From Picochlorum sp. SENEW3 (lineage: Eukaryota), in NCBI GenBank assembly GCA_034226945.1, contig CP120460.1, positions 558,001 through 622,000 of the forward strand: 64,000 bases of DNA. Reading direction: 5' to 3'. Positions 1-57,925 of the stretch are shown one piece after another. Under the pieces are notes generated by a model. The model saw nothing but the letters and a program-made list of their open reading frames with translations. It had not been told where the DNA came from and searched no databases. Made by a program: the position numbers and the translations under genes. How positions within the stretch are numbered: position 1 is the stretch's first letter; every line of letters starts with the position of its first letter.

Positions 1-912
1 CCAGTGCGATTGGATGGGTCAGAGGGATTGTTGTGTGGATCTGCTGGGATGATGACGTTGGTTGTGCATCATATTGCGTCTGATGGAGCATCGAGTATAC
101 CTGACAGTGTTGTATCTGGCGTGCTTGGTCCTCTGCAGCAGGGGCGGCAGGTGGATGGCGTGCGTGTGGGTGTCAAGGATGTGGTGGCCAAGTATATATA
201 TTATGATGGGGATGTATCGCCGCTTCTTGAGTGTACAGGGCAGAAGGGTGTGTGTCATTTGAATATGGAGCAGGCGTATGCGATGGGGTGGCCATTGTTC
301 CAAGGGGCATCTGAATATCCAGAGACCAAGAGGGTGTCTGGGATGTTGAGGAATCTCATCTTGGTTGATGTGTCTCAGATGTTGGATGAGAAGGAATCGA
401 CGTTGGGGTATCCTCGGGTGGGCGTCTTATCTGATACAGTGGCACTCGCGCTCACGCATGATGACGCTTTGAACGAGATGGGTGACAGTAGCAGTCTTGT
501 GGATGAAGTGGATGCGTGGTTGTACGGAGACGTATTCATGGATAGTTCTCATCTCATACAAGATATTGCAAAGGCGTGTCAGAAGAAGGCTGCTGTGGAG
601 CTGTCTCGGTCGTTGCATGTGTTTCATACTGCACGGCATGTTCGAATAGGACAGGGCATCCTCCATGATATAGATACAGCCTTGAACGCAGCAGACATGG
701 CTAATAATGATACAGGTAAAAATAGTACTGTTTTATTGCGAGATTCTTTTAAAGCGGAGCGTCTGGCATACACGGTATTACATCATCCAGACTATGGTGT
801 GGAACCTCGCATGCCAGATATGCATGTGATTGCCCTGATCCTTCCGTTTGCACTGCCTCTGACTCTTACATTTTCACAACGTATCAAATTCCTTGTAAAA
901 GAGACATCATAA
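1..912 (+). CDS. 3' part of a probable GPI transamidase subunit PIG-S-like protein (5' end outside window)
   Basis: Open frame from the window edge to TAA at 910-912. The C-terminus 'AYTVLHHPDYGVEPRMPDMHVIALILPFALPL...KFLVKETS' resembles the PIG-S end (DPxxxxxxYFPDEHxYAIYxPLFLP, TM, basic tail). Recognised by eye. Confidence 0.5.
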   Translation, partial: PVRLDGSEGLLCGSAGMMTLVVHHIASDGASSIPDSVVSGVLGPLQQGRQVDGVRVGVKDVVAKYIYYDGDVSPLLECTGQKGVCHLNMEQAYAMGWPLFQGASEYPETKRVSGMLRNLILVDVSQMLDEKESTLGYPRVGVLSDTVALALTHDDALNEMGDSSSLVDEVDAWLYGDVFMDSSHLIQDIAKACQKKAAVELSRSLHVFHTARHVRIGQGILHDIDTALNAADMANNDTGKNSTVLLRDSFKAERLAYTVLHHPDYGVEPRMPDMHVIALILPFALPLTLTFSQRIKFLVKETS

Positions 913-914
913 AT

Positions 915-1847
915 TTATGCATCATCTAATTCTTTATCGACCTGAGCCGCGGTATCAGCCCCCATATCTGCCGAGACACTTGGGGCTGCGTCATGCTGTT
1001 GCTGCTTCTTCATCTTGCGTTGCTCTTTGAAATTCGCTTCCAATACTTGCTCATTTTCCTTCAACATTTCTTCCAGTGCACCCATATCGACAGCCTCAAC
1101 CACACTCTTCATCTTATCCATACACTTCTGAAGCTTTTTATTCACGTCTGCATACACAGCCATTTGCCCTGCAAACTCGTACAAGACTTTTGGCAACAAA
1201 TAGCTGATACGAAGTGTCACCGCAGTCCCTGCATCGTCATCCTCTGAATGAAACAAGACTGCAGCGACAAGAGGAAATCCTTCCACTGGCTCCTCGACTA
1301 TGTATTTGTTCTCCTCCTCCTCGGTTCGATCCAATGTCACATACAATTCTAAAAACGGTGTTGTTGCCCACCGGTACCACATGTACATGGACATGTAGGA
1401 AGGCTCCTCCTCATGAAACCCAACCTCATCAATCATATCAAACCACTGCATCCAGTTCAATCTCGAGTCCCAGACTTTATAACAGTCAGATATCGGCCTA
1501 TCCACATGAACAGTCACCTCATGCTTCATGGCAATGTCAGTAAACTCGATAAACTCAAACGGGGTATACCCTCCGTCCTGAGAAGGATATTCATCTTCTT
1601 CTCCACTACTACTATTGATACTACTGCTCGCTAGATCCTCATCATCGCTCTTACTAAACTCCTGCTCCCGTTGAGCAGCATCGCCCGTCGCCCGGCATAA
1701 TGCGACCCCACGACTACTCAGCCTATTTGTTGTCATATGTAATTGTTGCTGTTGTATTCTTAATGCCCGTGGGTATGGTCGAGGTGCACCTTTGTTGCAT
1801 GCCGTCGTGGGGGACCCTACCACCACGTGCCGAGCATTCGCATGCAT
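915..1847 (-). CDS. SRPBCC/polyketide-cyclase-like (START superfamily) protein with probable plastid transit peptide
   Basis: Basic, Ala/Ser-rich N-terminus, then an acidic linker, then 'HEVTVHVDRPISDCYKVWD..LNWMQWF..I' and 'TAVTLRISY', typical of the cyclase/dehydrase fold. Confidence 0.65.
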   Translation of the reverse strand: MHANARHVVVGSPTTACNKGAPRPYPRALRIQQQQLHMTTNRLSSRGVALCRATGDAAQREQEFSKSDDEDLASSSINSSSGEEDEYPSQDGGYTPFEFIEFTDIAMKHEVTVHVDRPISDCYKVWDSRLNWMQWFDMIDEVGFHEEEPSYMSMYMWYRWATTPFLELYVTLDRTEEEENKYIVEEPVEGFPLVAAVLFHSEDDDAGTAVTLRISYLLPKVLYEFAGQMAVYADVNKKLQKCMDKMKSVVEAVDMGALEEMLKENEQVLEANFKEQRKMKKQQQHDAAPSVSADMGADTAAQVDKELDDA

Positions 1848-1996
1848 TGTGGAGTAGTGTATCGACGGTTATTTTGGTGTACTGATTGAAATTATTGTAT
1901 GACCTGGGGCACCCACATCTACGTGTATTTGTATACAAACGCACGAGACTCCGGACTGACCCTTAATTAAAAGTAAAAAAATACATTCACCATGCC

Positions 1997-4691: not shown

Positions 4692-7600
4692 ATGATCAGG
4701 ACGTCACCTTTTGTTGTCTTGACGATCCTTCTCGGACTATGCTCAAGTTGCCTCGCGCAAAGGGACGCTGGTACGTGACTGATTCCCTTCCACGAAAGCA
4801 GAAAAGAAGCGATATTACACCATCATTCTTTTATATACGCGATTCAACCACTGATATCGCTAGCACATGCTTGTGCCACGTTCCCGCCAACCGTTGTTAC
4901 GACTCTTCCAGGCTGGTGTATTGCGTTCAATCCACCCTTCTGTCTGCACAAACCAACAATTGCATCTCCCAATTAATTAATCAGTATGTATGAATTTGCA
5001 GATGACGCAGGAGATCGTTTGCTCCTCAGTGTCAGAAGGCCCGCGATTGTGAACTCGACCTTTGAGAGCCTCAGTGTCGGTGCGTTTCCTTAACCAAGAT
5101 CTGAAGGGTGTGACTAATTCATGCGTGGGATAGCATGAAGCTTCATGGAAGCAGTTGATCGTATACATGTTTGCAAAACATTTGATGGAATTTATAATAT
5201 ACATGTAGGTTTTTATACCGGTCCAAACTTGCTCCCAGTTGACTACGAGGTCAAGTGTGTGGCCCCAGGATCAGACTGCCAGGCCGAGAGCTTGGTGGAG
5301 CCCGTGGGTGGCAGGTTGCCGAGCAAGGTGGCGTATATCACCGCAACCCTGTTTCCATTGGAGTCTAATACAACATATTGGTGCTATGCTTTGTCGTCAA
5401 GTGATAAAGTAACAAAATGCCAGGGGCCCTTGGTGGGAACAACTGCTCTTCCAGAGGGTGCTCTGGTGTCGTACACGTTGCAGTATCAGCAGATGTCGTC
5501 ATTTTTCGACCTCGAAAAGAGAGAACAAGTTTGTATCAATCTGCTTGAACTCGCTCCGAATGGGACATGTGCAATTCAGGATGTGCTTGATGGAGCAACA
5601 AGAGCTGTCAATACATCTCTGGTGTTTGGAATAGTGGATTACAATGAATATTCCGAGGGACTGTTGCTATTCGATCAATTATCAGACCCTACAAATGATA
5701 CTCTTGATGTATTGGCCAATGGGATTGTCAATGGATCGTCCAGAGTAGACGTGGTAGATGTGTCTATCGACTATGTGCCAAAATTTGACAGTCCTGGTGC
5801 GCCTGGGTTTGTGCGGGCGCCAACAGTTGGTGTGATGAATGCAACAGTAACATGGCTGGATGGGCGTGTGGGCATCCCTGTAGAAGATTACGCTGTAAAC
5901 TGTGTGGTTTCTTCTGCATCTGCTCTCTGCACTGATGCTGGGGTAAATGTGACTGGGCTTCCGCGAAGAAGCGAAAGTGCTTTTGTGACTGGGCTTGCGC
6001 CGAATACTACCTATGAATGCTGGGCTGTTGCATCTAATATTGCTGGCTCGGTTTGCTCCAAGGAGCCTGTCGCTTTTAGGACGTTGATTGAGCCTGGTCC
6101 ACCAACAAACCTGCAAGAGAACGCAGTCAGCAACACCAGCGTCACGATTGGATGGATGGATGGTCTTGAAGGTAACCCTATTGAGACATATGACGTCAAT
6201 TGTGTGAATGGAACAAGTACAAGCTGCTTGTCTGCGGGGGTATCGTCCTTGGATATTCCTCGAGGATCTGAACAGGGACGTGTCTCCAGCATGATACCAA
6301 ACACTACATATGAATGCTGGATAATTGCCAAAAATGAGGTGGGAAATGCGTGCAGCTCCTCTCCAGTAGAAATAAAGACATGGATTGAGGCTGGGCAGCC
6401 AACTAGCCTGACTGAACAAGCCATCACGAATTCAACTGTCACTATTGGATGGGTGGATGGTGATGGAGGAAATCCTGAGGAGAGATACAGTGTCAACTGC
6501 GTTACTGGCTCGAGCCCATGCACGTCATCTGGAACCTCTGTTTCAAATGTCACGAGGGGCGTTCAGTCTGCCACAGTGACGGGTTTAGCATTTAACTCAT
6601 CGTACATGTGCTATGTTCTGGCTATCAATGCTGTGGATACTATCTGCTCCTCTCCTTTGTCAATCACCACAACAATCAAGCCAGGCCCTCCGACAAATGT
6701 TCAGAATCCTGAAATTTCGACATCTTGGGCAGCTGTCACCTGGGATGATGGTGCTCTGGGAAATCCCCAAGAGAACTACACTGTCAACTGCCTCGATTCA
6801 TCAGGATCAACCAAGTGCACAGATTCTGGAATACAGGTCACCGATATATCTCGCGGAACAGAATTTGCCAATGTCACAGGACTTGATCCTAATACAACAT
6901 ACAGCTGCTGGGTAATCGCTGAAAATATCGTCGGAAATGTATGCAGTCCATTGCCTGTGACGAACAGAACATGGATTCAGGCTGGTGAACCGACATCTTT
7001 TGTTCAGGGGCAGATAGGTTCCACAAGTGTGGAGTTCTCGTGGGTGGATGGATTGGAAGGATATCCAAGCGAGACCTATTCAATTACATGTACCACAAAT
7101 ACCGCTGCAACAGATTGCACAAATCCTGGGGGCACAGTTGTTGAAGAGTCAGGGATAGATGCAGGCGTCGAAAATGGTGTGGTGACTGGCCTGTCGGCTG
7201 GTACTAGTTACAAATGCTGGGCCAAGGCTGTAAATGGTGCCGGAGAGGTGTGCTCAGATAGTATAACGTTGTCGACTACGTCCCAGTTGAATACGAAGGC
7301 TGTGATTGCATCTAATCAAAGTGTGTCCATCACCCCAGACACTTTTGCTCCTCCCAGTGGTGGATCAAATGTGACATATCGGGTTCAATGCCTAAACTCA
7401 TCAGCCACAGTATGTGACCCTCAGGCAACGGGAACGGGTGCCCTTCAGCCTGCTACTCCGTTGACAGATCCTGCAGCCATCAATGTGGCCGGGTTGACAA
7501 ATGATGTCTCTTACCAGTGCTTCTCCGTTATGAGCTACGCGGACACATCAAGTACTTTGAAGTATGCATGTGGCGGTCCAATCGAGGTCAAGCCATTTGC

Positions 7601-18240: not shown

Positions 18241-18652
18241 ATTCACTCATGATGGCTGCCAAGCCATATGAAAGTTGGATATAGGAGATTGGGACAGAAG
18301 ATAGGAGTTTCTGCTGCTCCCTAGGATCCACACGACAGATACTCATTGTCACTGCAAGACACGTGATTGTTCAGAGGAATATCGAGGCCATTGCTTGGGA
18401 AATCTGATCTCGCGTATGACCAGCTCATACCATGGAAGGAATTTGAGCATTGTACAGGTAACTGTTTGTCAATCAGATTTGAGTAAAGAGATGCTCTCGT
18501 CGGCCTACAGAGGTGGTGAACAAGTACCAACAAGCCCCTCTGGCAGAGGTTGGTCTTTCTTGGATTTGAATCCCTTGAGATCAGTTTTTTTTGTAAAATC
18601 CGGATCGGTCACTTGCCATACATGGTCTCCCCACTCTTAATTAATTTTTTTA

Positions 18653-19678
18653 ATGCAATATATGCAGCCATCAGTCGATAGAAAAGAGACTCTTGAGATG
18701 GCATTCGGTTGTGGTCACACATGTTGGCGACATGGCATCATGTGCCATGCGAATACTTCTCGCATGACCGTTCTACAGCCACATCAGCGGGATCAACGAT
18801 CCCGAGTACATGTATCACATAGAGAAAATCATAGGGAGCCACAGGAGGGAACCACGTGTGACCACTATCAATTCATACACAGGAGGAACCTCCTGGTGAT
18901 GATGGCGTCTTTCGTGCCTGCTGCACAGTACGCAAAGCAGGCTCACAGTATGCCAGGGCTTCGATACATGACGGATGACGAGTATCGCATCGTGATGGAA
19001 GCGATGAATCGTTGTATACCACCGATTAAATGTCCATTGATGCTCAGGCTTGTCTTTCATGATTCTGCCACATACAGAGTCAGCACCAATGATGGTGGAC
19101 CTAATGGGTCTATTCAATTTGAGACGGATAGGCCAGAGAATTTTGGGTTGAAGAGAGGCGTGAATGTGATCCGCCAGCTGCAGGAAGAGGTGAAAGGGAC
19201 ACCATTGTCCTTTGCAGATTTGATTGCCCTTAGTGGGGCCTACGCTGTGTATCGCACAAAGGGTCCTGATATGATACGAAAGATACGTATTGGGAGGAAA
19301 GATGCGACTGCGCCGGATCCAGAGGGGCGTATGCCGGAGGAAACATTCTCAGCGCCAGAGCAGCTTGCTGCCTTTGAATCCATGGGATTTGGGCCAACAG
19401 ACATGGTGGCGCTGCTGGGATCCCATACGCTCGGAAATAAGGGGTTTGGAGAACCGCTATTGTTTGATAACACGTATTATACGTCTTTGTTAAAGAAGCC
19501 ATGGGAGAATAGCAAGGATCCCATGGCATCCATGATTGGTCTCCAGTCTGATAGAGTGCTTCCTGATGATGCAACATTGCGGCCTATTATACAACGGTTT
19601 GCGGACGACAACGACGCATTTTTACACAATTTTACACAATCATATATACATTTGACTGAATTAGGGTATTCAATGTAA
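18653..19678 (+). CDS. Ascorbate-peroxidase-related class I heme peroxidase (APx-R/APX6-like), probably plastid-targeted
   Basis: Distal motif 'LRLVFHD', 'GGPNGSI.FE..RPENFGLKRG', 'LSFADLIALSGA', proximal 'ALLGSHTLGNKGFG', 'FDNTYY..LLKKPW'. Confidence 0.88.
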   Translation: MQYMQPSVDRKETLEMAFGCGHTCWRHGIMCHANTSRMTVLQPHQRDQRSRVHVSHRENHREPQEGTTCDHYQFIHRRNLLVMMASFVPAAQYAKQAHSMPGLRYMTDDEYRIVMEAMNRCIPPIKCPLMLRLVFHDSATYRVSTNDGGPNGSIQFETDRPENFGLKRGVNVIRQLQEEVKGTPLSFADLIALSGAYAVYRTKGPDMIRKIRIGRKDATAPDPEGRMPEETFSAPEQLAAFESMGFGPTDMVALLGSHTLGNKGFGEPLLFDNTYYTSLLKKPWENSKDPMASMIGLQSDRVLPDDATLRPIIQRFADDNDAFLHNFTQSYIHLTELGYSM

Positions 19679-19728: not shown

Positions 19729-20947
19729 TTATGCTTGTTGTTGGGGAAACGGAACACCCAATTCCATCAACTTGGAGAATGCCTTGGAGAAATCTTCACG
19801 GAACTTGTCCTCATCTTTTGCGTACAAATCGACATACTTTCTAAACTTTCTGTCCCAGATGAGAGCCATATCCGTGGGAAGCATCATCAGCGTGCCACTC
19901 TTATCTTCATATTGCTCTGGACCATCCCACTTTTTCTTTCTCCATTTATTCTCCTTTAATTCCACAAAGTATTGATTCGAAAACGTTGTCGGGGCATTCG
20001 TCCATGGCCCATCCCATCCAGACCTATCTGGATGGCATCTACCCAAAGCATGTGCTCCAACGAGAGCCACAATCTCCTGGTCATCGAATCCCATTCGGTA
20101 AAAGATATCCCTGATATGATCCGATCCTTTATCTCCATCTGGTAGTCGACCGTCAGGAAGAGGAACGTGCGTCGCCTCGTCCTTATCAGATCGCCCAGGC
20201 CTCCATGGAATCTCAGGTCCACCCATCTCCTCAATGGCAGTTGCTCCAGCAAGCGTCCACAAATCAGCATATGAAATCCAACCAAACTTCTTCTTCACTG
20301 GCTCAAGCAAGTCACGTGCAACCTTCAGACCAGCATTCGCCCCCCATGCCGATTCAGGTGCAAACCTCATGGTTGCTCCATTGGACCCCCCAGTCCCAGT
20401 TGCCTTGTCATATGTCCCAGATGTATGCCATGCAAGCCTCACCAACAGAGGACCATATGAACCATCATCATAGTCATCATGATCCAAAAGATCAGCAATC
20501 GCCTTCTTCACCTGTACATAATCCTCCGGAGTAATCTCCTTGGCAGATGGTGGCATCCCCAGCAAGCTGTCCAGATATCCCTGTTCCTTGGCAAAATACA
20601 ACCCAGCCCCGGCACCAAGCAGACCGATCAAAAAGGTTCCTCCTCCTCCTCCTCCCTGCAATATATTTGATAGTAACAGCGAAATCAACCATCAACAGTG
20701 ATTATGAGGCGGAATGGATTGTTCAATTGTTTTTTTTCATGTCGCGTCATTGGAAGAAAGAAATACCTCCTGCTGAGCCAATCTCCCACAGAGAGATGAA
20801 ACCCTAATTATGAATACAATATCGAATGAAACGTACCCCACTTGGCTTGGATGACCCAGCTTCCGTGGCATATCCACGAAGCACACGTGGCACCAACTGT
20901 GCGGAAGAGATCTTCTTCGACTGTTGTACAAGCAACGCACGAAACAT
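19729..20947 (-). CDS. CCP1: Mitochondrial cytochrome c peroxidase; model complement(join(19729..20655,20837..20947))
   Basis: '[22 protein letters not shown]', 'GAHALGRCH...SG.DGPWT', 'LMMLPTD'. The ORF track lacks the start. Exon 1 from ATG 20947 encodes a mitochondrial presequence ([30 protein letters not shown]). Phase-0 intron 20656-20836 (GTACGT...TTGCAG) joins it to the Gly-rich TM segment. Confidence 0.92.
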
Positions 20948-20949
20948 TA

Positions 20950-20954
20950 TTACA
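20950..20954 (-). promoter_or_regulatory. TGTAA chlorophyte-type polyadenylation signal overlapping the hydrolase stop codon
   Basis: Minus strand TTG-TAA. UGUAA is the established chlorophyte poly(A) signal; use at this site is inferred. Confidence 0.5.
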
Positions 20955-21981
20955 ATTTTAAAGTACCAGTACAGAATTGCACGATGATTCCTATAAACTC
21001 GTCAGCATGGGCGAAATTATGATTGCCTGGTGTGAGACAGCATGCTGATCCTGAGAGCTGGGCACAGAGTTTAGATTCTTCATAGCTAATCGTCTCATCA
21101 TCTTTTCCATGGATGCATAAAAGCTCAACCTTGCCATCGTCTTTAATCTTTTGGGCATACACAGTCATGGGAAGGTTTGCTCGTCCCAAAAAATCCGTCC
21201 ATCTCATGGTCCATTTCATACCCCAAGGTTCTGTCCGCTCTATACCCTCTGGGTGCGCCTTCTCCAACGCCTCCAAGATACCTTGTCCGAACCTCTTCTC
21301 CAATCCATTCATTGGTTGAAATCGTCCTGCGAGGTTGATCATTTTGGGGACGTCGCCAATCTCGGCGGCATATTTAAGAACATTTGTGCCACCTTTGCTG
21401 TGTCCAAGGACACAGATCACATTCATGCCCTTGTCGTGGCGGAGAAAGTCGACTGCGGATTTGATATCACGGACTTCTTCTTCATGATTTCCCATACGGA
21501 ACTCTCCATGGCGTTCACTCTCTCCATTCAGCGCACAGGGATGGTCAAACCGAAAGGAAGACAGACCAGCAACTGCTAATGCATCTGCAATCTCTGCAAA
21601 TCTGCAACTATTCTTGTTTGACATGTATCCATGACAAAGTACAACGACATCGTTACTCGTGTTCTTCTGCTCAGGTTTGACGAGTATGCCGACGAGCTGC
21701 TCCCCTGATGGGTTTGTGAACACGAGCCTGGTACCAGGCTCACCGGTGGGTGCTGTTGCCTCCTGGGAGTTTTCTTCGTGAGAAGAGGTTCCCTGTGCCA
21801 TAGTCACGGTTCTTCTTGGAATATTTACTATGGTATCTAAATATCTATTGTCAATACAGCCGTCTTTTGGGTGCCTCGGTTGTCTTCGTGATTGGAAGTT
21901 GGACTTCCTCTTCAACAAGAAACAGCAGCGCGGCGATTTCACGAGATACTCAGCACGAGTTCCCTGTCTCACCGTCTTCAT
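20950..21981 (-). CDS. Alpha/beta-hydrolase family protein (start 21981 with transit-like leader, or 21801)
   Basis: 'VVLCHGY', 'SFRFD', nucleophile elbow 'LGHSKGG', 'IHGKDDETI', 'GNHNF'. Confidence 0.9.
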   Translation of the reverse strand: MKTVRQGTRAEYLVKSPRCCFLLKRKSNFQSRRQPRHPKDGCIDNRYLDTIVNIPRRTVTMAQGTSSHEENSQEATAPTGEPGTRLVFTNPSGEQLVGILVKPEQKNTSNDVVVLCHGYMSNKNSCRFAEIADALAVAGLSSFRFDHPCALNGESERHGEFRMGNHEEEVRDIKSAVDFLRHDKGMNVICVLGHSKGGTNVLKYAAEIGDVPKMINLAGRFQPMNGLEKRFGQGILEALEKAHPEGIERTEPWGMKWTMRWTDFLGRANLPMTVYAQKIKDDGKVELLCIHGKDDETISYEESKLCAQLSGSACCLTPGNHNFAHADEFIGIIVQFCTGTLKL

Positions 21982-22019
21982 TACAAATTAAAAAATCATT
22001 CATACATATATAGTGCTGC

Positions 22020-23645
22020 TTAGGCAGATTTTTTGGTTTGGTTGATGAGATCATCCCTTCCAAGGGACCCAAATGAACTAAATATGATCATGGCACAGAT
22101 GGACAGGGCGCATGCTGTGGCACCACCGAAGAAGCATCCAATGTTACCGAGTCCTTGTTGGGCAGTCTTGTCTGCCAAGAATCCTGCCAAAGAGTTTGAA
22201 TAGGCGAGGATGACACCCAACACCATGTCAGTGAAAGACCATGCTGTTCCAGTAATCTTTCCCAGTCCTGGGATTGTCTTTTGCGGAATATAGGATGACA
22301 GCATTCCAATAGTGACTCCGTGAGTCATGGCCATGTGTACCCCGATACAAAAGGCTCCGAGCGCCATGCCTGTGAAGGAGGGGACAAAGGCAAAGGATGC
22401 ATTGGCCCCAATGAGCACAGCGATACCAGCAACAATCACCATGTTTCTGGATGCCACGCTTTCTTTCGCTTTCAATCCCATTGGTGTCGCCAAGACAGCC
22501 TGCGTCAACATGATGATGGATGTCAACACGGGGAGGGAGGCCTTGTCCATGACAGTCTTTGCCCTCAGGGTGACAAAGGATGCATCAAATCTGGCAAAGT
22601 ACAGGATCGAGACAATGATGAGCGCCTGCCAATACGCAGGTTGGAAGGCTCCCAAAAGAGCTTTTGCTTTTTGGAAGAATGTCAGTTGCACCTGTTCGTC
22701 TTCACCCTCCCCACCTGGGGATGCTGCGCTGGCAGCAGGGGCACTCCCATCCTTTGTTCCTCCAGTTCCAAATGCATACACGACCAACGTAAGCGCAACC
22801 AAGGCTGGTGCTCCAGCCATTGCAAACGTCACAACGTAATTTTGACCGGATACCTTGTACGCTGCAGCAGCCACAGCAGCACCAAACAGAGCACCAAATG
22901 TTGCCATGGACTGCCTCAGTGAAAAAGCAGCTGCCGCGCTCTCCCCAGACTGTGTCGCCAAATCCCCAATCAACGCTTTACTAGGAGCTTCACGAATACC
23001 CTTGGACATTCTATCGAAGATTTTACCAAAGGTAATCCAGTACAAGCATGCAATGGCCCCAAAGGTACTATACACAATACCAGACGCAGCAAACATGGGC
23101 TTGTTAATCGTCGTCAACAGTGTACCGAAAATAACCATACGAGCTGGTGACAAAATATCAGCAAAAATACCACTCACACTACCCGACGCCTTGCTTAAAA
23201 ACTGCGCAATAGCCTGAAGATTACCAATCTTACTATTGCTCATCTGCAACACATCACTCATATACACTGGCAGGTATGTGTCATGAATAAGAGTGGCCAC
23301 CGAACACAACATCTGAGCCATTGCCAAAGCCAGCATCTTTCTATTCGCCTCTGGGTTGCTGAACGGTGTGACCAATTGCTTCAGCTTTGACCCCACACCT
23401 TGCCCTTCCTGAGGGGCAGGCTGTGCCGTGCACACCGTCTTTGGGCAACCCATCACCCTATGCGACACACATTTCCTTTGTCTTACCAAAAGACTGCGGG
23501 ATCGCGTCACAGGCATCCTGGGTGCCACGAAAGGCTGGCCTGCTGTCGTGGCTCGTGAGATCATTGTGTTCGTTTCTTGGTTGTTCGCACTGATATTCTG
23601 CAATAGGAATTCATATATGAAACATATGTTCAAAAAAGCATACAA
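22020..23645 (-). CDS. Major facilitator superfamily transporter with probable plastid transit peptide (true start likely MISRAT, about 27 codons into the ORF)
   Basis: About 12 hydrophobic segments. 'SGIFADIL', 'KPMFA', 'DRMSKGIREAPSKALIGD', 'AFSLRQSMATFGA'. Confidence 0.88.
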   Translation of the reverse strand: MYAFLNICFIYEFLLQNISANNQETNTMISRATTAGQPFVAPRMPVTRSRSLLVRQRKCVSHRVMGCPKTVCTAQPAPQEGQGVGSKLKQLVTPFSNPEANRKMLALAMAQMLCSVATLIHDTYLPVYMSDVLQMSNSKIGNLQAIAQFLSKASGSVSGIFADILSPARMVIFGTLLTTINKPMFAASGIVYSTFGAIACLYWITFGKIFDRMSKGIREAPSKALIGDLATQSGESAAAAFSLRQSMATFGALFGAAVAAAAYKVSGQNYVVTFAMAGAPALVALTLVVYAFGTGGTKDGSAPAASAASPGGEGEDEQVQLTFFQKAKALLGAFQPAYWQALIIVSILYFARFDASFVTLRAKTVMDKASLPVLTSIIMLTQAVLATPMGLKAKESVASRNMVIVAGIAVLIGANASFAFVPSFTGMALGAFCIGVHMAMTHGVTIGMLSSYIPQKTIPGLGKITGTAWSFTDMVLGVILAYSNSLAGFLADKTAQQGLGNIGCFFGGATACALSICAMIIFSSFGSLGRDDLINQTKKSA

Positions 23646-24108
23646 AAAAGGGATGGATCATCCGTTTGGACTGTATTTCATACTGACAGTTGACGGGATC
23701 GTCCTCCCAACGTTCGCCCGAAATATCGGGTTGTGACACGTACCAGTGACACTAGGCGTCTAAATGGATACAAGATATGTAAAAATTACAGTAGTGCAGA
23801 TCATATGGACAGATTCTTGAGTCTATGGCTCTGTCTGTTCCATTCCCATTGGAAGCGATCTTCTCGCGACGAGGAAAAAAAGAAGAAGATCGCTATCGTC
23901 GTGCTCATCCATGCCATGGAGTATAGCACTGTCCACAGCACATCCCGTGTCTTCTACTGTTATTTTTAGCACTAATATATAATTGATACAACAGTACCGA
24001 CAGGAATTTCTGCAGTGAAACAGTGACATCTGTTGACTGATCGAACAGCCTTGATTCCAATTTTGAACAGAACAACCCCATGCATGGACCAAAGAGGGAT
24101 TGAATTGG

Positions 24109-27100
24109 ATGGCTGATGCAACAGAGATAGGAAATCAACCAGAGACAAAGAGAGTAAAGCGCGATACAATAATGTCGACGGACGTTCAGGCTGAGTTGGA
24201 TTCGTTGGACAGGATTCTTTCGAGACTTGCTTTTACGACGGATGGGACGGCGTTGGAGAATGTTTTGTCCAAACTGATTCCCATCATGATTGGGAAGATG
24301 GATGCGTCGGTGGAGTTGCCGAAAGGGGTGCAGCGTCAGGTGCAGCAAAAGGTTTTGGACATTTTGTCTCATGCAAATAAGAGGATGGATGGGTTGCCGA
24401 ATCTGAAATTGCCCATTGGATCTGTGTGGCGGGCGTATCGAGATAGTAAGAATTCTGTAGGACAGAACATAGGTTTGGTGTATTTGGGCAAGGCGTTTGA
24501 TCGATGTGGGTCGGATGGGCTAGATGTTGTGGGGGAAGTGGTGCAAGGGATTCATGCACGGCCTGGTGGGCATCAGAATGCGTTGATGATGCATGTGTTT
24601 CGTGTATTGCGATGGTATCCTGAATATTCGAGGAATTTAAGCAATAGCATAGATGCCAAGGCGATTGTAGAAGATGGGAAGGATTTGGATGTGTTCATGA
24701 GGCACGCTGTCATGTTGGCATTGTACATCCCTCCGAGTTCGCGGACAAGGGTTGCAGATGGTGCACGGGTTGTTCCTGGATTGAGCGAGTCGGATATGAA
24801 GATTATAGAAGGTCGAGGGGAACTGTCAGTAGATGATGTAGAGAAGATGATGGTGGGTGTGTTGGAATTTGTCTCGCGTGCTGAGCCGTCTCCAGAAGAT
24901 AGTATGATGTTTTTGTTGTGTGCCTCATCCAGCCCGTATGAGGCTGTGAAGAAGAAGAGTGAATTTATGTATGCGAAGACATGTGTTGTGGACACGGCGC
25001 ATCCGACGGTGGATGTCGAGAAGAGGGCAGTGGTGAAGCCTTTATTTGACATGTACCTGGGTAGCATGGAGGATCAAGTTCTGCCTGATCATCTGAAAAG
25101 AAGTCCAGTCAACCAGTCATTGAAAAGCAGAATACTTGGAATTTTGTGCAAGAGCACGGTGGCGTGTAATACGAATCCGGAGGCTATCATGGTGATTCAT
25201 GACTGTATTTTTGGGGAGACTTCGAATCTGTCACTGAAACAGCAAGGAATGCAGTTTGCTGTGCATGTGCTAAAGCATGCAGACACCTCGACGATACGCG
25301 TGTTTGCTCCATCGATCATTCGTCAATGCTTGGAAATATTAGAGGGCGGCTCTGGTATTGTATCGCTGAGAGGTTTTGCATATCAATGCTTGGGGCAGCT
25401 TGCCCAAAGAGACCCTGCATCGTTGCAAGAAATGAAGATGGAACTGATGAAGCGCTGCTTTGATGCTTTAGAGATTGAAGGTCCTGGAGTGCGGGCATCG
25501 GTACAGGAAACGATCAACTGCCTGGCGAATTGTTTCCACGGTGATGCCGATCAGTCTTCTGAAGTGTGGGAGGTGTTGGAGGGGTACTGTTATAGTGAGA
25601 ATAGTTCGGTGAGGCAGACGGCGTTGCAGTGGATTATATGGATTTTCAAGTTTAGTGATACACATGCTCGATATATGTGCTCTGTTCTATGCTCTGATGG
25701 AAACATTAATATATCAGGCCTTGCACGTGAAGGCCTTGATGTGGACAAGGTGGTACAGGCACAGGGCGCAAAGTTTGGCAAGGGGGAAAAAGATGTGAGA
25801 GCAATGCCCACGTTGAAGGATATGGTAAATGTCGTTTCAGAGAAACATCCAAAGATTTTTCACGGGTCTCATGATGGATTGTCGACCTTGTTTTTGCCAG
25901 CACCTTCTCTAGAAGCACTTTTGGGATTTTTGCATTCTCTCCCATTGGATCAGAGTGACACAGAGGCCATGAGGGGTTATTTCGGTACGTTGATGTGGTA
26001 TCCATAATATAGTATAATGTCATCTGTATAATGTTTGTGCGTCCTTGCAGCAATTGTATCCTCGTGTCTGATTAGGAATGCACCTGGGAGTCTCCAGAAT
26101 GCCTCTCTTGATTCGCTTTTGTATTCAGCTGCGTTGAGTAAGGGGGAGTTTTTGCAATATTTCGAATCAAAGACCATCATCTTTGAAGACATGTTGAACC
26201 ATGTAGATGACAGAGTTTCTTGCAAATCAGCAAGGTTGCTAGGGTTTTTGAGACAGTCCATGCCGTCCCAAAGGCTGGAACAGATTTGTGCACATTCAAG
26301 TGAGATCATCAAAGACGTATTAGCGAGCAAGCAGAGAAAACAGGAGGAGGTTATTGGCGCATTGTTTATCACTGGATTCTTAGATGCGTGGAAAGTCTCT
26401 CCTAGCCATACTTCTCCGTCTACAAGCAACCTGCAAGACCCCAAGGCAACATTGCTTGCATTGACTCTTTCTGATGAACTGAAAAATAAAGTCATTCGTG
26501 CGACTGCTCTGCTGTGCATTGCATACTCCAGTTTCGGCGATGAACTGCAAACAAGTGATCTCTCTAAGATTCTTGAAGAAGTCTTGCGGAAATTAAAGCC
26601 GTATAAAGATAGCAGCATTTCCATCATTGTTGCAGAGGCATTGGGACTGATTGGTATGAATGCACACGATGACTCATATATTGCCACTATCGTCGACGAA
26701 ATACTGGAGTTTCATATTTCAAAAGATGAGAAGTTGCTAGAACAGTGTGGTGATGCTCTTGTTTGCATATGGGGAGGTACGAATGCCACACGTGATCAGT
26801 ATCTGTTGCTGCATGCTGGGATGGCCGAGGACAATACTCATCCACGGCCTTCACATTCACACGGAGAGAAAGGAGCGATAAGGGAAAAGATCTTGAAATT
26901 TATTGCGAACAATTGTATTGCTAGTTCACGATCAGAATCGCGTATGGCTGGTGCAATCTGGCTGTTGAGGCTCATTGAGGGAGCCCCACAAACACCAGAG
27001 ATATCTGACAATGTGGCAGAGATTCAGAAAGCCTTCTGCTTGCTTCTAGGAGACAGCAACGAAAGAACTCGTGATCTTGCCAGCAAAGGAGTTACTTCTT

Positions 27101-29695
27101 GTTATCAAGCTGCCAAGGATGATGTGAGGGAAGATCTTGTGGCCTCCCTTGTCGGCATCCTCTCAGGGAGTGACTCTGGAAAGTGGATGAGGCCTGATCA
27201 TGTTGAGGGCAGCACTCAAATATTCGAGGAGGGATCTCTGGGCTCTTTACCCAATCAAAACGGGGGAATCTCAACATATAAAGAGATATGCTCCTTGGCG
27301 ACAGATCTAGGTCAACCTGATCTGATTTATCAGTTCATGAACTTGGCAGGGCACCAAGCAGCTGCAGATGCAACAAGAGGAGCAGCATATGGGATTGCAT
27401 CTGTGGCGTCGTTGGCAGGTGATACACTGAAGCCTCACATCGACGCATTGATACCCAGGCTATTTAGGAGCACGTTTGACCCAAATCCTGCTGTTCGAGA
27501 CTCTATGCGGCACATTTGGGTCGTTCTGGTGGACAATCCCAAAGATGCCCTTAAGGATCACTTGAAAGAAACCCTCTCTATCCTTACAAAGGATATGACA
27601 AAGCAACAGTGGCGTGTACGTGAATCAGCAGCTCTTGCAACTGCCGACATTTTACAAGGTCTACTGTGGGAAGACATCAAAGAATTCTTACCGACTATTC
27701 TCAATTGCTGTTTCCGCATCATCGATGATGTGAAGGAAAGCGTCAGGCTTGCTGGGCAGACACTTGTGAGGTCAATCACCTCATTATCCATCCGATTGAC
27801 GGATGCTGATAGCACAGCCTCATCTGATAGTAAAGAATTCCTATCAACGGTATTTCCAATATTGATTGGGACTGGGATGAGTTCCAGTTTGAGTGATATC
27901 AGAGCCATTAGCATAGGACTGATCACAAGATTGATCAAATCAGCTGGTCCTGATGTTCTAAATGACAAGATGCAGGATATTGTCCCACCTCTATTGGAGT
28001 CTTTAAGGTACGATGACTATTCTTCAAATGTATGAACATCTCGAATTCAACACAAATACACTGACTGTAGTGGATTGGAAGATGCTCGATTGAACTATTT
28101 GGAGCAACACATCAACAGGCTGGGGATGGATGCCGACAGGTTTGAAGAGGAACGAATTCGATTTTCACAGCAAAATCCAATAGGAGAGACCTTAGATTTG
28201 TGCTCAAAGTCTGTCGATGGAAAGTCGTTCTGTGATATGAGCAGCTCGTTGGTTTCCCTATTGCGCACTGCTGTTGGTTCATCAACAAAATCTGGGACTG
28301 CAAACTTCATTGTTGCATGCACTAGAAGAATAGGGAAAGATGTGTCCCCTGTAGCGTTTAATTTGATGAAAGTCTTGTACGATGCATTGTCGATAGAGAA
28401 AAGCGCTTCTGTACGCAAGTCATATGCAACAGCCTATGCGTGCTTGTCAAAATATGCACCGAGGTCCAAAATTGATGCCATCCTTGACTCTTGGCTCGAA
28501 TCATGCAAAAGTGAGAATGCTGAGAATGAGCTTATGATTCTCACAGGAACCATTTTGAAATCAATGTCATCGGAATCGACAGATCTCTTCATACGATATG
28601 CTGATGACATTGCTCCTGTAGCCTTCATGGCCAGATACAGCGATCCACCAGTAGCAACGGTGTGGACAAATGTTTGGGAAGAAATTACGACTGCCACTGG
28701 TTCTGGTATTCGAGGGCATGCAGTTTCAATCTCCAAAATGCTTTTAGAAGCACTGAATAGTAGCCATTGGGCCAGGAAAAAGGCTGCGGGTGATGGCATT
28801 GTCTGCCTTTATGAAAATGCTGGCGATCTTCTTGCAAATCAAACTGATCTCATCGCTTCAACCGTGCTCAAAGCTCTTTCAGGTAGACTATGGGATGGTA
28901 AGGAAGTACTTTTGAAATCTTTGGCTACAATAGTCATTGCATCTGATAAGAGTCAGCTTGGTACAGTCTGTGGAGGTGAGGCGAACATTGTGGCTGCCTT
29001 TTCCACAGCATGCCAGAAGCAAAAGCTTGCATATAGAACTGAAGCCCTTATTCAAACTGGAAGAGGTATGTCAATGTCATATGTATGGCACAAATAATTT
29101 TGGACCTCAATGTTTCATGCTTTGTGCAGTCTTACGTTATCTGAATGACAAAGATTTCTATGCCCAAATCTGGCCAACACTGAACGAACTGCTCAGCCAG
29201 CATTCTGAGAGATTGCAAGGGTCTCGTAAAGAAGAAGATGGTGAGTCCACAAGACTCCCAAGCATCAAAATTATCCTGGAATGCTTGTCTTCACTATGGT
29301 GCCAGGAGTCTGAATATCTTGCAAAAAGAGATGCATCATGGAACTCTGTCACAGCCACTGCACTGTTGCCAATACTAAAGTATTGTGAGAAAATAGAGGA
29401 TAGGAAAGCTGCTTTGCAGCTTTATGTATCTCTGATTCAATGCTCAGATTCAACTTCAATACCTGAAGACACAGTCACACAGGTCGCTGAGGAAGACATT
29501 GCAATGCTGTCATCAAGTAGAGTCGAAAGTATTCGATCAATAGGATCAGATCTTTTGCACGAAATAGTAAGGAAAAGAATGTGTATTAGTCATTCAATCA
29601 GCGACCTACGAAGCAGGTTGAAGGATATTGAATCTGCTGAGAAGTCAGCAGCTGTGAGGAGTAAAATAAATGCAATCATATCAGATTTGGAGTAG
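24109..29695 (+). CDS. ECM29: Proteasome adaptor ECM29 (HEAT repeats); model join(24109..25984,26051..28007,28071..29065,29130..29695)
   Basis: Four consecutive ORFs join in frame through GT-AG introns (25985-26050, 28008-28070, 29066-29129). Motifs 'STYKEICSLATDLGQPDLIYQFMNLA', 'LIPRLFR..FDPNP.VR.SM.HIW', 'WRVRESA', 'GRLWDGKE'. Confidence 0.9.
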
Positions 29696-40134: not shown

Positions 40135-41679
40135 ATGCAAAATACATTAGATTTTACCTTAAAAAGTGCATCTTCGTGCGTAGCGACGAGGATGCCACTC
40201 CAGCACAGAAAACGCTGGTCTGGGAGACAGCATGTGACGTGTCGCTGTGCTGTGGCCTCGTCTGCGACGGCGAGACTCTCAAAGGAGGATCTCGTTCGAT
40301 ATCTATCATCAGGGTGTAAGCCAAGAGAAAAATGGAGGTACGTGGGACGTGCATTGTGACGGCAGAGTGATCTATACTGCTTGTGAAACTGTGTGTTGAA
40401 GCATGGGTGTATCATCATGGCCTTTGTATACAGGATTGGCACGGAGCACGAAAAGCTAGGTTATGATCTTACAACGAAGAAGAGGTTATCGTACGAGCAA
40501 ATAGAGATCATACTGGAAAGTGTGGCAGATAGATATGATTGGGAGCGCATTGTTGAGGATGGAAAGACAATTGGCCTCAAGCAGAATGGTCAGAGTGTGA
40601 CGCTCGAGCCAGGAGGTCAATTTGAAGCTAGCGGAGCGACGCTTGAGACTCTTCATCAGACTTGTGCTGAGGTCAACTCGCACTTGTACCAAGTCAAGTC
40701 CATTGCGGAGGAGATTGGTGTTGGCTTTCTGGGAACAGGCTTTGATCCCAAATGGAGGTATGAGGATGTTCCATGCATGCCAAAGGAACGATATAATATT
40801 ATGAAAAACTACATGCCAACCAAGGGCAGTCTTGGTCGTGATATGATGTTTCGATCGTGCACGATTCAAGTAAACCTTGATTTTGAAGACGAGGCAGATA
40901 TGATTGAAAAGTTCCGCATCGGCATTGCTCTTCAGCCAGTAGCAACAGCTCTTTTCGCAAACTCACCATTTAAAGAAGGAAAGCCAACTGGTTTCAAGTC
41001 CTGGCGCTCTCATGTGTGGGAGGATACAGATCCTGATAGATGTGGCACATTGCCATTTGTCTTTGACTCTGATTTCGGATTTGAACGATACGTGGACTAT
41101 GTGCTGGATGTGCCGATGTATTTTGTGTATAGAGAAGGTAAGTATATTAATGTAGCTGGGAAGTCATTCAGAGATTTCATGAATGGTACCCTGGAAGGCT
41201 TGGAGGGAGAGTACCCCACCATGGATGACTGGGAATCGCATCTCACAACAGTGTTCCCAGAAGTACGCTTGAAGAAATTCATAGAAATGAGGGGTGCTGA
41301 TGGTGGCCCATGGCGCCTTATTTGTGGCCTTCCAGCACTGTGGGTTGGCTTGCTCTATGACGAAGAAGCACAGAGGCAGGCAGCAGCCATCATGTCCAGC
41401 ATGACTGCAGAGGAGAGAGAGTACTTGAGGAGTGAGGTTCCTGTCCACGCCTTGCAGACTCCGTTCAGAGATGGCACCGTCCAAGATTTAGCGTTAGAAG
41501 TACTATCGATTGCTAGAGGCGGGTTGACGCGCAGAGGAAAGCAGGAGGAGAAATTCCTGAATCAGTTGGATGACATTGCTCAGAGTGGTCAGTGCCAAGC
41601 AGACCATGTCTTGGCCATGTACAATGGAGAGTGGAATCATAGCGTTGACCCATATTTTTCAGAAGAATATTCATTCTAG
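40135..41679 (+). CDS. GSH1: Glutamate-cysteine ligase (plant type), plastid-targeted; model join(40135..40337,40434..41679)
   Basis: Spliced '[20 protein letters not shown]' (intron 40338-40433), 'LEPGGQFE', '[14 protein letters not shown]', '[20 protein letters not shown]'. Confidence 0.96.
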
Positions 41680-41692
41680 AACCATCAATATT

Positions 41693-42781
41693 TTACAATG
41701 TGCCAGCAAACACAAATTCAGCAGGCCCAGTCATGTAAATTTTATTGCTCTTTTCGTCCCACTCAATAAACAATGGACCTCCAGGAAGATCCACACGACA
41801 TTTTCTAAGAATTTTACCCTCCAACACGCCCGCCACAACCGTTGCACACGCTCCAGTTCCGCATGCAAGAGTTCTACCAGCTCCTCGCTCCCACACCATC
41901 ATTTTCACATGCGATGGTGAGAGAATCTCCACAAACTCTGTGTTTGTTTTTGCCGGGAAAACCGGATGACTTTCAAATAGAGGGCCAACATGGAACAAAT
42001 TCACTGCATCAAGCTTGATAGGCGCTCCATCTACAGAATACACCAATGCATGGGGGTTCCCCATGGAGACACAGGACACTGTATATTCATGCCCATCCAC
42101 CTCGAGCGTCTGAGCAATCACAGCATTTCCATCCGCATTGGGCTGCAACGTCGTAGGAATCTGCGCTCCCTCCAATATCGGCGATCCCATATCCACTCGC
42201 ACCTGGCCATCCTCTTGCATCACAGGTTGAATAAGACCAGCAAGCGTGTCAATTTTGTACTCCTGCCCTGGAGACGCACCATCAACATCGGCGATAAACC
42301 TTGCAAGACATCTAATACCATTACCACACATTTCTGGCTCGCTCCCATCCGAATTATAAATCCTCATGGTAAGATCCGAGCCTGGCTGCTGAGGAGGCAA
42401 GGCAAAAATAACCCCATCTCCTCCAATACCAAAGTTTCTATCGCACAGCCTCTCAGACTGCTCAGGCGTGAGCACAGGCTCAGTCGTATGCCTATTATCA
42501 ATCAGAACAAAGTCATTTCCCAATCCATGGTATTTCGCAAACTGAATCTGACCGGTTTCCGCCTGCTGGGCAACTGCAGCAGCGACACCTTGCCACGACA
42601 ACGCATGACCTCTGGCACAATCGATACCGCGATAGCCTTTATGAGTGAATTTCTGCGTGTTCAAAACCCTCGCAACAGGCGATTGAGGCCGGCCTTGAGA
42701 AACGAGACGTCGGTTCTGCAAACCTGCCTCCAATCTCGACCCATTCTGGGCGATTTGGGCAGTCACACGACTACAAACCAT
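41693..42781 (-). CDS. dapF: Diaminopimelate epimerase, plastid-targeted
   Basis: '[11 protein letters not shown]', '[16 protein letters not shown]', 'SMGNPH', '[17 protein letters not shown]'. Confidence 0.97.
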
Positions 42782-54431: not shown

Positions 54432-55799
54432 ATGGCTCGAACACGCAGGGTATGTACATGGAGGTGCCATGCATGTAGACATGTCAATTGTGTCAACTGT
54501 AAAACAATGCAAAGCAATGCATACGACTCATAATACCAAAATCTAATCCATTTTATGTATATTCGCATGCAGAGGAAGAAGAGAACGCATATCAAAGAGT
54601 CAGAAGATCCTTCTAAAAAGGGACAGCCAAAGTCTTTTGTGCTGCGTCGGGGTCGACATGCCAGTCTTTTGAAAGATTTGGAGAAAGATTTGAGGAAATT
54701 GATGTCTCCAAACACAGCGACGAATCTCAAGCAGCATAAAAAGAATGTGCTCAAGGACTTTGTTCATGTTGCAGGTCCACTTGGGGTGACACATTTCCTG
54801 TTGCTTACTGCAACGCATAATGCGTCGTATCTTCGGATAGGAAAGTCTCCTAGAGGGCCTACAGTGACATTTAGAATTCATGAGTATTCATTGATGCGAG
54901 ATGTGTTGGCATCACTGCAGAGGCCGAGGTGTCCTCAGTCAATTTGGTTGACTCACCCATTGGTTGTGATGAACTCGTTTAATTCTGCGTCGTCGGAGGA
55001 TGCGGAGCATTTGAAACTTGTTTCTGTCATGTTTCAGAATCTTTTTCCGACGATTAATGTGACGACGACAAAGTTATCGACGTGTCAGAGAGTGTTGCTT
55101 TTGGAGTATAATGCAGAGAGCAAAAGGATTGTGTTGAGGCATTATTCCATTGCTGTCAAGGCGGCAGGGGTCGCGAAGAATTTGAAAAAACTTTTAGATA
55201 GAAAAAGAGAGACGCCAGATCTTGGGGCGTTAGAGGATATTTCGGAACTGATGACAAAGAGTGGGTATGGGTCTGAGAGTGAAGGTGAAGATGCAGAGGC
55301 TGGAAAGGTTGAGTTGGAGGATCGGAATAGAAAGGGCGAGTTTCGAGGGACGCGCCAATCTCGGATCAAGTTGACAGAAATAGGTCCACGTATGGAGCTG
55401 GAAGTGATCAAGGTGGAAGAGGGTTTGTGTGATGGCAAGGTTTTGTACCATAGGTTTGAATCACGGACAGCTGAGCAAATTGCTGAGAAAGATGTGGAGA
55501 TTGAGGAGAAGAGAAAGCTGAAAGAACAGAGAAAGAGAGAGCAAGAGGCGAATGTTAAGCGAAAGCAGGCTCTTAAGAAGATGAAGGAAGGGGCAAAGGA
55601 AAGCAAGAAGGAAAAGAGAAAGAAGCAGTGGTGGGAAGAACAGAATCAGACTGCAGACAATGTGCCACAAGCAGAGCATGACGTTGAGTGGTACGTCAAA
55701 GAGGTTGGAGAAAACCCTGACGAAGAATTCTTTGGATCTGATAAGATGAAAAGAAAGAAGACTACAGAAACAAAGAAGAAGAAGAAGACTAAAAAGTGA
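54432..55799 (+). CDS. PPAN: Peter Pan / Ssf1 Brix-domain ribosome biogenesis protein; model join(54432..54449,54573..55799)
   Basis: 18-nt exon 1 (MARTRR), phase-0 intron 54450-54572. 'LKDFVHVAGPLGVTHFL', 'PRGPT.TF', 'LRHYSI', 'LTEIGPRMELEVIKVEEG'. Confidence 0.95.
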
Positions 55800-55809
55800 T
55801 TAGGTATAG

Positions 55810-57447: not shown

Positions 57448-57925
57448 ACCACTCTTGAGATACTTTTAATTGCAGCATCGCTGTCCAGATTGGCTCCATG
57501 AGGTTTTGAAGATTTCTCAGAATGGTGGGTTTCCTACTTTGAAACATGACCACATCCGTTGAGGTCCGTCTCAAGAAACACCCGCATTGTCACAGGCATT
57601 GGGTCACTAATAAATATCTGAAAGTATTCGACGAGAGATAAAATTCCCGAGTGGGTACAGGAAGCAGAACTACTATTCAAGTTTTGCTTCTGCTTGGTCT
57701 TACAGTGTCTTGTGCAAAAATATGTAGTCGTGACATGCACAAACCGGATCGTTTTTGCTAATATATTTTGAAATAGTTCAAGGAAATGCAAAAGAGCTCA
57801 CCAATACAGCCCCAAAGCTCGACAAGTCATCGACATGTGGCTGTCAGTCACATGTCACTCAAGGTATGCGCGTGCTTGGTCCCCAATCCTACCTACCCTT
57901 ATATATTATCACATTTGTTAATTAA

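Follow-up and report, generated by a model that had tools for sequence, protein, structure and literature searches.

How can two genes that follow each other on the same strand, with no DNA left between them, each give rise to its protein? This question is raised by a junction within a 64,000-nt stretch of Picochlorum sp. SENEW3 (contig CP120460.1, positions 558,001 to 622,000; hereafter the window), where the start codon of a cytochrome c peroxidase (CCP) gene lies just beyond the stop codon of an alpha/beta-hydrolase gene. The window has 46.4% GC, is very gene-dense and is taken as part of the nuclear genome of a streamlined chlorophyte. Two answers had been offered by a first reading of the sequence (the original prediction): a bicistronic mRNA in which stop and start are coupled, or a CCP promoter and 5' untranslated region (UTR) lying inside the hydrolase coding sequence (CDS). 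The answer that we favour, and hold to be probable with moderate confidence, is that the two genes are separate monocistronic units that overlap, with the start site of the CCP nested in the hydrolase, as a result of the loss of their spacer in a streamlined genome. The features on which the argument rests are the following.

Minus strand: hydrolase/CCP junction, reading ...ACT GGT ACT TTA AAA TTG TAA TA ATG TTT CGT...
20947..20952, minus strand: tandem in-frame hydrolase stops TAA TAA, the first at 20952-20950 and the second at 20949-20947, read from the sequence
20950..20954, minus strand: TGTAA, candidate poly(A) signal of the hydrolase, which contains its first stop
20950..21801, minus strand: alpha/beta-hydrolase CDS, 283 codons plus stop (852 nt), with the ATG at 21801 taken as start
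20837..20947, minus strand: CCP exon 1, ATG plus 36 codons (37 codons, phase 0), mitochondrial presequence, from alignment and the RNA joint
20656..20836, minus strand: CCP intron 1, 181 nt, GTACGT...TTGCAG, phase 0, exactly skipped in a contig of RNA run X1
19729..20655, minus strand: CCP exon 2, with a Gly-rich hydrophobic segment, the haem peroxidase domain and the stop

The A of the CCP ATG (20947-20945) is the last A of the second hydrolase TAA, and the gap between the first hydrolase stop and this ATG amounts to 2 nt (junction string UAAUAAUG, spacing TAATAATG). The re-reading of the minus strand confirmed this interlock of stop, second stop, ATG and TGTAA without intergenic space, and all the coordinates of the original prediction were found to be correct. 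The RNA evidence consists of assembled Logan contigs (runs X1, X5, X6 and X15), X6 providing fragments only. Since the contigs of RNA run X1 and of run X5 cross the junction without insertion or deletion, the 2-nt spacing is not an assembly slip of the window. It is an extreme value, the one other clear spacer between same-strand neighbours nearby, that between a transporter gene of the major facilitator superfamily (MFS) and the hydrolase, measuring 218 nt. The production of a fusion protein by stop-codon read-through was considered as well and is ruled out by the two in-frame TAAs and by the different frame of the CCP.

The argument depends first on whether the CCP begins at this ATG. Exon 2, which starts at 20655 in the frame of the open reading frame (ORF) 19729-20691, matches the haem peroxidase family PF00141 (E 4.5e-50), and its best match in the PDB is the yeast mitochondrial cytochrome c peroxidase (E 3.4e-81), with RLAWH, GAHALG and GPW aligned; the best 60 PDB matches shown are all yeast CCP entries. 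Of 7999 candidates scored in a protein search with the CCP, 5691 reached E <= 0.001, and the closest named homologues are green-algal, those of Parachlorella kessleri and Chlorella vulgaris being named 'Cytochrome c peroxidase' (74% identity) and that of Tetraselmis 'Cytochrome c peroxidase, mitochondrial' (72% identity). Among the 15 close homologues that were compared, six are full-length (P0002, P0007, P0012, P0016, P0019 and P0026) and their N-termini share the form M[LF]R...R[GT][YF]A[TSA][EQ]A..., the remaining nine beginning within the protein or reading in from the intron. The translation of exon 1 aligns with these six green-algal CCPs and with two syntenic first exons from the metagenomic relatives L001 and L002, M1, R24, A27 and A30 being invariant. 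The exon 1 peptide contains six Lys and Arg residues for one Asp or Glu; after it comes a hydrophobic stretch rich in Gly.

In the RNA of run X1, a contig of 3391 nt (mean word depth 402) runs over 20070-20654 and then over 20836-22300, with 181 nt skipped between them; the skipped letters have CT..AC ends on the plus strand, that is, GT..AG on the minus strand. In run X5, which is probably DNA from a strain about 3% different, the intron is retained. Exon 1 of the CCP is real, because it aligns with algal CCP N-termini and is joined to exon 2 in the X1 RNA. The first exon and its mitochondrial presequence, as originally predicted, are borne out by the eight aligned N-termini and by the splice joint, and the splicing of the 20656-20836 intron by the exact loss of 181 nt; neither a different first exon nor an unspliced intron, the two outcomes named beforehand as speaking against the prediction, occurred in the X1 RNA. 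To judge from its sequence, the protein is a CCP of the mitochondrion: its class I peroxidase domain comes closest to CCP, and it has a predicted N-terminal targeting sequence.

The interlock would vanish if the gene models were at fault, for instance if the CCP started at an internal Met (20556) or with another first exon, or if the hydrolase ended earlier or had a 3' intron, any of which would restore a normal spacer. We find this hardly credible. The exon 2 ORF has indeed no ATG before 20556, and gene callers on related DNA gave N-termini derived from the intron (P0001, P0003, P0005 and P0009). Against this, the X1 RNA joins 20837 to 20655 and shows no further joint up to 22300, exon 1 matches the six CCP N-termini and the two syntenic first exons, and the hydrolase C-terminus aligns to its end with those of L001 and L002. 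By the RNA joint and these two alignments, a gene-model artefact is rejected as far as contigs can show. Separately, a (GGA)6 run (Gly6) at the start of exon 2 (20637-20655, minus strand) is polymorphic in length: run X5 carries six extra letters in it, corresponding to two added Gly codons, and the close relative P0001 has only GGA in its place.

No other splice joint is found between 20836 and 22300 in the X1 RNA contig, indicating that the hydrolase ORF is unspliced and that its stop is the true one. The protein matches the Pfam families Hydrolase_4 (E 9.3e-15) and Abhydrolase_1 (E 4.1e-9), its GHSKGG motif, D235 and H261 are invariant in the alignment with the syntenic genes of L001 and L002, and weak PDB matches are found with cinnamoyl esterases and an MHETase (E 1e-10 to 1e-12).

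If the two genes are expressed as separate units, the hydrolase mRNA would end at the junction, and the signal for this would be the TGTAA built on its stop. A census was made of the 25 ORFs of at least 250 codons in the window (27 minus two nested shadows). A first TGTAA follows the stop within 150 nt in 15 of the 25, the background being 102 TGTAA in 128,000 strand-bases, from which some 11% would be expected for each 150 nt. Of the ten long ORFs that have none, at least four are exons from the interior of one ECM29 gene. Only four TGTAA occur on the minus strand over 22100-19400: the MFS stop is followed by one at 37 nt, the hydrolase stop lies in the second, and the CCP stop is followed by two at 95 and 105 nt. 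Each gene is thereby provided with a 3'-end signal, that of the hydrolase being the sole minus-strand TGTAA between the 3' ends of the MFS gene and the CCP. TGTAA behaves as a 3'-end signal in this window. Moreover, the interlock of stop and TGTAA is a habit of this genome, since four of the 25 long ORFs have their stop inside a TGTAA (the hydrolase, a peroxidase convergent with the CCP, 55810-57465 on the minus strand and 57926-59659 on the plus strand). Gene signals embedded in the CDS of a neighbour are also normal here, as the TGTAAs of the CCP lie within that of the convergent peroxidase.

On average, the TGTAA of Chlamydomonas precedes the poly(A) site by 14 nt (PMC3439250). In X15, an oligo-dT metatranscriptome, a contig of 115 nt without differences from the window extends over 21054-20940, its end falling 14 nt past the T of the TGTAA; its depth is low and it has no A tail, and its end is a weak hint of the hydrolase 3' end. 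The X15 contigs leave parts of the CCP and exon 1 uncovered, which is meaningless at that depth.

The origin of the junction can be approached through relatives. A scan of metagenome contigs returned 76 loci, and the two closest with flanks, L001 and L002, were examined. The gene order of L001 (86% identity) is the same as in the window (MFS > hydrolase > CCP < peroxidase), and its hydrolase stop (5648-5650) is separated from the CCP ATG (5733) by a spacer. In L002 (74% identity), where the hydrolase stop is at 4053 and the CCP ATG at 5214, the MFS gene is inverted and an ORF of the opposite strand sits between the hydrolase and the CCP. The spacing, whose conservation in related genomes had been put forward as a check of the original prediction, did not prove to be conserved, being 82 nt in L001 and, with a gene in between, 1160 nt in L002. 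The hydrolase of the window is four residues longer than both relatives (...FCTGTLKL vs ...FATR and ...FVLS), and the last 24 nt of its CDS have 29% GC vs 48% across the whole. From these comparisons the junction appears young, not being conserved across the two relatives with flanks. Given the four additional residues and the AT-rich composition of the hydrolase tail, the simplest history would be a deletion in which the old hydrolase stop was lost along with the greater part of the spacer. As for the intervening ORF of L002 (4105-4922, minus strand), it encodes a low-complexity sequence of 201 codons or more, rich in Lys, Ser, Arg and Glu; it does not occur at that position in L001 or in the window, which would mean a loss or relocation there, or else a gain in L002.

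The expression of the two genes as overlapping monocistronic units could then proceed, and have arisen, as follows: (i) the hydrolase mRNA would be cleaved and polyadenylated about 10-20 nt past the stop-containing TGTAA, as suggested by the sequence statistics and the weak X15 hint, so that it would end inside the opening few codons of CCP exon 1; (ii) the CCP mRNA would begin in the last part of the hydrolase CDS, with hydrolase coding sequence as its 5' UTR; (iii) the 181-nt intron is spliced, as observed, giving a mitochondrial CCP whose basic presequence precedes a hydrophobic sorting segment, its import being predicted; and (iv) by comparison with the relatives, an ancestral spacer of about 80 nt would have been deleted for the most part, along with the old hydrolase stop, and the hydrolase frame would have gained four codons from what had been the CCP leader, ending at the TAA TAA before the ATG. 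Concerning the second step, the last ATG upstream of the CCP ATG is at 21008 and opens a 5-codon ORF only; a start downstream of 21008 would provide a leader of 60 nt or less without upstream ATG, along which the 43S complex would scan normally to the AUG at 20947. RNA that reads through both genes probably exists at some level, and is not expected to be the template for CCP translation. A putative CCP promoter and 5' UTR nested inside the hydrolase CDS is the better supported of the two explanations of the original prediction, its start site being placed by inference.

Several points weigh against this reading. The positions of the CCP start and of the poly(A) site are deduced, the RNA data being assembled contigs, and no promoter element was identified within the hydrolase CDS. 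The 82-nt spacer of L001 has no TGTAA; since the first one downstream lies in the CCP intron, the hydrolase 3' end of L001 probably also runs into the CCP, and the signal rule is less tidy there than in the window. The deletion of the spacer may also have removed the old core promoter of the CCP, and after such a loss it would be more plausible than for ordinary neighbours that the CCP depends on transcription from upstream. Finally, the X1 contig is unbroken from the spliced CCP through the whole hydrolase into the MFS gene: RNAs, or overlapping RNAs, cross the junction, as a bicistron would require.

This last observation has to be read together with the other joints of the same assembly. 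The X1 contig also spans the 218-nt spacer between the MFS gene and the hydrolase, which has its own TGTAA, and a second X1 contig links the 3' end of the CCP with the convergent peroxidase. With a depth near 400, contigs can be joined by a small fraction of read-through or overlapping ends, and because those of X1 fuse all neighbours, including convergent ones for which one shared mRNA would be senseless, they cannot tell a bicistron from overlapping mRNAs. By our own reckoning with 31-letter words, a hydrolase mRNA ending near 20938 and a CCP leader of only about 20 nt or more would be enough for continuity over the junction. What the contigs prove is that the intron is spliced and the junction transcribed; bicistrony they do not prove.

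A functional bicistron would consist of one capped and polyadenylated mRNA on which 40S subunits terminate at UAA(UAA) and reinitiate at the AUG 2 nt further on, the use or skipping of the TGTAA deciding between a hydrolase-only and a two-gene mRNA. We consider it improbable. In its favour, only 2 nt part the stop from the start, and the second stop shares letters with the ATG in a UAAUG. In viruses, termination-reinitiation operates when the two codons lie no more than about 20 nt apart (PMC10275272), a range that includes the 2 nt found here, and a UAAUG case occurs in CHV1. The statement of the original prediction that polycistronic nuclear mRNAs occur in green algae is upheld by published work (PMC7896298, PMC11291117), and at some loci of Auxenochlorella protothecoides the stop of ORF1 and the start of ORF2 overlap (PMC11291117). 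To this can be added the spliced X1 contig continuing through the hydrolase and the core promoter that the CCP may have lost with the spacer.

The known algal bicistrons, however, are of another build. Their ORF1 is short, with medians of 357 nt in Chlamydomonas and 291 nt in Auxenochlorella, and ORF2 is reached by leaky scanning, a weak ORF1 start context favouring ORF2 and a single AUG restored in an ORF1 reporter abolishing ORF2 expression (PMC7896298, PMC11291117); the median spacer between the ORFs in A. protothecoides is 40 nt, with some loci overlapping (PMC11291117). Leaky scanning is excluded here, because 29 ATGs precede that of the CCP and the hydrolase start context is strong (ACTATGG, with A at -3 and G at +4). 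Reinitiation after long ORFs, for its part, generally needs a structured upstream element that pairs with the 18S rRNA, and reaches an efficiency of 3-20% in viruses (PMC10275272). With 283 codons, the hydrolase is a long ORF1 to which this need would generally apply. The motif of the TURBS (termination upstream ribosome-binding site) complementary to the 18S rRNA, which we take to be UGGGA, is absent (UGGGA/TGGGA) from the last 123 nt of the hydrolase, other 18S complementarity lying outside this search. Folding of the 140 nt that surround the junction is not better than that of their shuffles (minimum free energy z +1.23, 185 of 200 shuffles being at least as stable), so that motif search and fold alike found no TURBS-like motif or structure. 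Furthermore, whereas the algal polycistronic pairs are conserved, this junction is not (the relatives have 82 nt and 1160 nt), the TGTAA sits at the very place where a separate hydrolase 3' end would be made, and X1 continuity, which also merges the MFS gene with the hydrolase and the CCP with the convergent peroxidase, is no evidence of a single mRNA.

The stop-start coupled bicistron, which the original prediction had put into its title by the word 'couples', received no positive support, and the long, ATG-rich ORF1, the lack of a TURBS in our searches and the unconserved junction speak against it. A stricter version, in which the CCP promoter has been lost and the CCP is made only from a hydrolase-CCP bicistron by termination-reinitiation at UAAUAAUG without a TURBS-like element, with the choice at the TGTAA as a switch, is similarly unlikely in our judgement. 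Our literature search on Picochlorum, within the text available, found nothing on nuclear polycistrons in the genus, and a search of the accessible part of PMC11092101 by terms found nothing on gene overlap, intergenic DNA, UTR, GC content, gene density or polyadenylation.

The coupling of the two genes could also be transcriptional instead of translational. The CCP would then have its nested start site, the activity of which would depend on transcription of the hydrolase and on the choice of poly(A) site at the TGTAA, either through occlusion of the CCP promoter by read-through, which would lower the CCP, or through shared open chromatin, the two genes being co-regulated or anti-regulated. 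This is a possibility that we hold to be rather doubtful. With zero spacing, each polymerase that finishes the hydrolase passes over the start region of the CCP, termination of transcription past a poly(A) site needs some distance, and RNA crossing the junction does exist in X1. On the other hand, contig depth cannot rank the expression of genes, an esterase-like hydrolase and a CCP have no apparent link in function, and another gene separates the two in L002. We retain the overlapping monocistronic units as the preferred reading.

The surroundings of the junction comprise three further features.

22020..23564, minus strand: MFS transporter CDS, upstream of the hydrolase, the first ATG of the ORF being taken as start; TGTAA at 21985, 37 nt past the stop
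18653..19678 (also 18641-19678), plus strand: second haem peroxidase, convergent with the CCP, its stop inside the TGTAA at 19674-19678
19622..19636, minus strand: two TGTAA (19636 and 19626), 95 and 105 nt past the CCP stop, antisense within the CDS of the convergent peroxidase

The TGTAA behind the MFS stop sits at the same position in L001. Both in the window (21981-21987) and in L001 (about 4700), an ATG directly follows this TGTAA (TGTAATGAA) and opens the long hydrolase frame; the peptide down to the conserved start is not conserved, and from the alignment this ATG is probably a leader or upstream ORF feature and not the true hydrolase start. On the other side, the stops of the CCP (19731-19729) and of the convergent peroxidase (19676-19678) are 50 nt apart, and the 3' ends of these two genes, bridged by an X1 RNA contig, should overlap as antisense RNA.

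Similar compaction is seen elsewhere in the window. The convergent long ORFs 1-912 (plus strand) and 915-1868 (minus strand) end 2 nt apart, both with TAA, in the palindromic CATAAATTTATG (905-920); the first TGTAA of the minus-strand gene is found 47 nt into the plus-strand gene, which itself has none within 300 nt. In two more convergent pairs the stops are 10 and 13 nt apart (55799-55812 and 41679-41695), the stop at 55810 lying inside a TGTAA. Overlap of transcripts is probably general in this genome. A further pair, the ORFs 26032-28035 and 28036-29097 (plus strand), share a frame with a single TGA between them, and the Pfam domains ECM29_N and HEAT_ECM29 are spread across the ORFs of 24067-29097 (plus strand); read-through at this TGA was considered and rejected, as it lies in an intron of about 61 nt with GT..AG ends (28009-28070) of one ordinary multi-exon ECM29 gene within 24067-29695.

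Both kinds of arrangement met here are known, namely the overlapping expression of genes where genomes are compacted and the placing of stops within the chlorophyte poly(A) signal; the locus is notable as an extreme case with a dated origin. It represents an extreme end-point of streamlining in a eukaryote of free-living type, with two expressed nuclear genes on the same strand and no intergenic DNA, which means that the promoter and leader of one gene must lie in the CDS of the other, and with a hydrolase poly(A) signal built on the gene's own stop codon. The series of spacers obtained with the relatives (1160 nt, then 82 nt, then 2 nt) makes the locus a natural test of how a promoter and a 3'-end signal survive the loss of a spacer, and could show if recent zero-spacer pairs are a route to the polycistronic genes of green algae. 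Should translation of the CCP depend on the upstream ORF after all, this would be a rare and evolutionarily recent case of cellular reinitiation after a long ORF, and a bicistron would be a counter-example to the leaky-scanning rule for algal polycistrons.

Overlapping transcripts have been described in compacted eukaryotic genomes (Williams et al. 2005, as cited in PMC2367439), with overlaps between opposite strands in Ostreococcus (PMC2367439). As in such genomes, intergenic DNA is here near nil, processing signals lie in the CDS of neighbours (the TGTAAs of the CCP, that of the hydrolase) and RNA assemblies fuse neighbours on both strands; in contrast to them, the overlap is found on the same strand, with an ATG 2 nt past a stop and with ends that are inferred, in a green-algal nuclear genome of free-living type that has introns and a normal poly(A) signal. 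The locus resembles the green-algal bicistronic loci in being chlorophyte and nuclear, with two independent ORFs on the same strand and a very short distance between them, and differs from them by its ORF1 of 852 nt (vs medians of 291-357 nt), with strong context and 29 ATGs, by the TGTAA at the junction and by an arrangement that is not kept beyond the close relative. With viral termination-reinitiation (the TURBS of caliciviruses and influenza B, and the hypovirus CHV1) it has in common the UAAUG overlap and a long upstream ORF, whereas it is a cellular nuclear pair in which no 18S-complementary motif (UGGGA, as assumed above) or structure was found. As for the downstream product, it is like yeast Ccp1 in its PF00141 domain and in its basic presequence followed by a hydrophobic segment, being here the green-algal orthologue, with predicted import into the mitochondrion.

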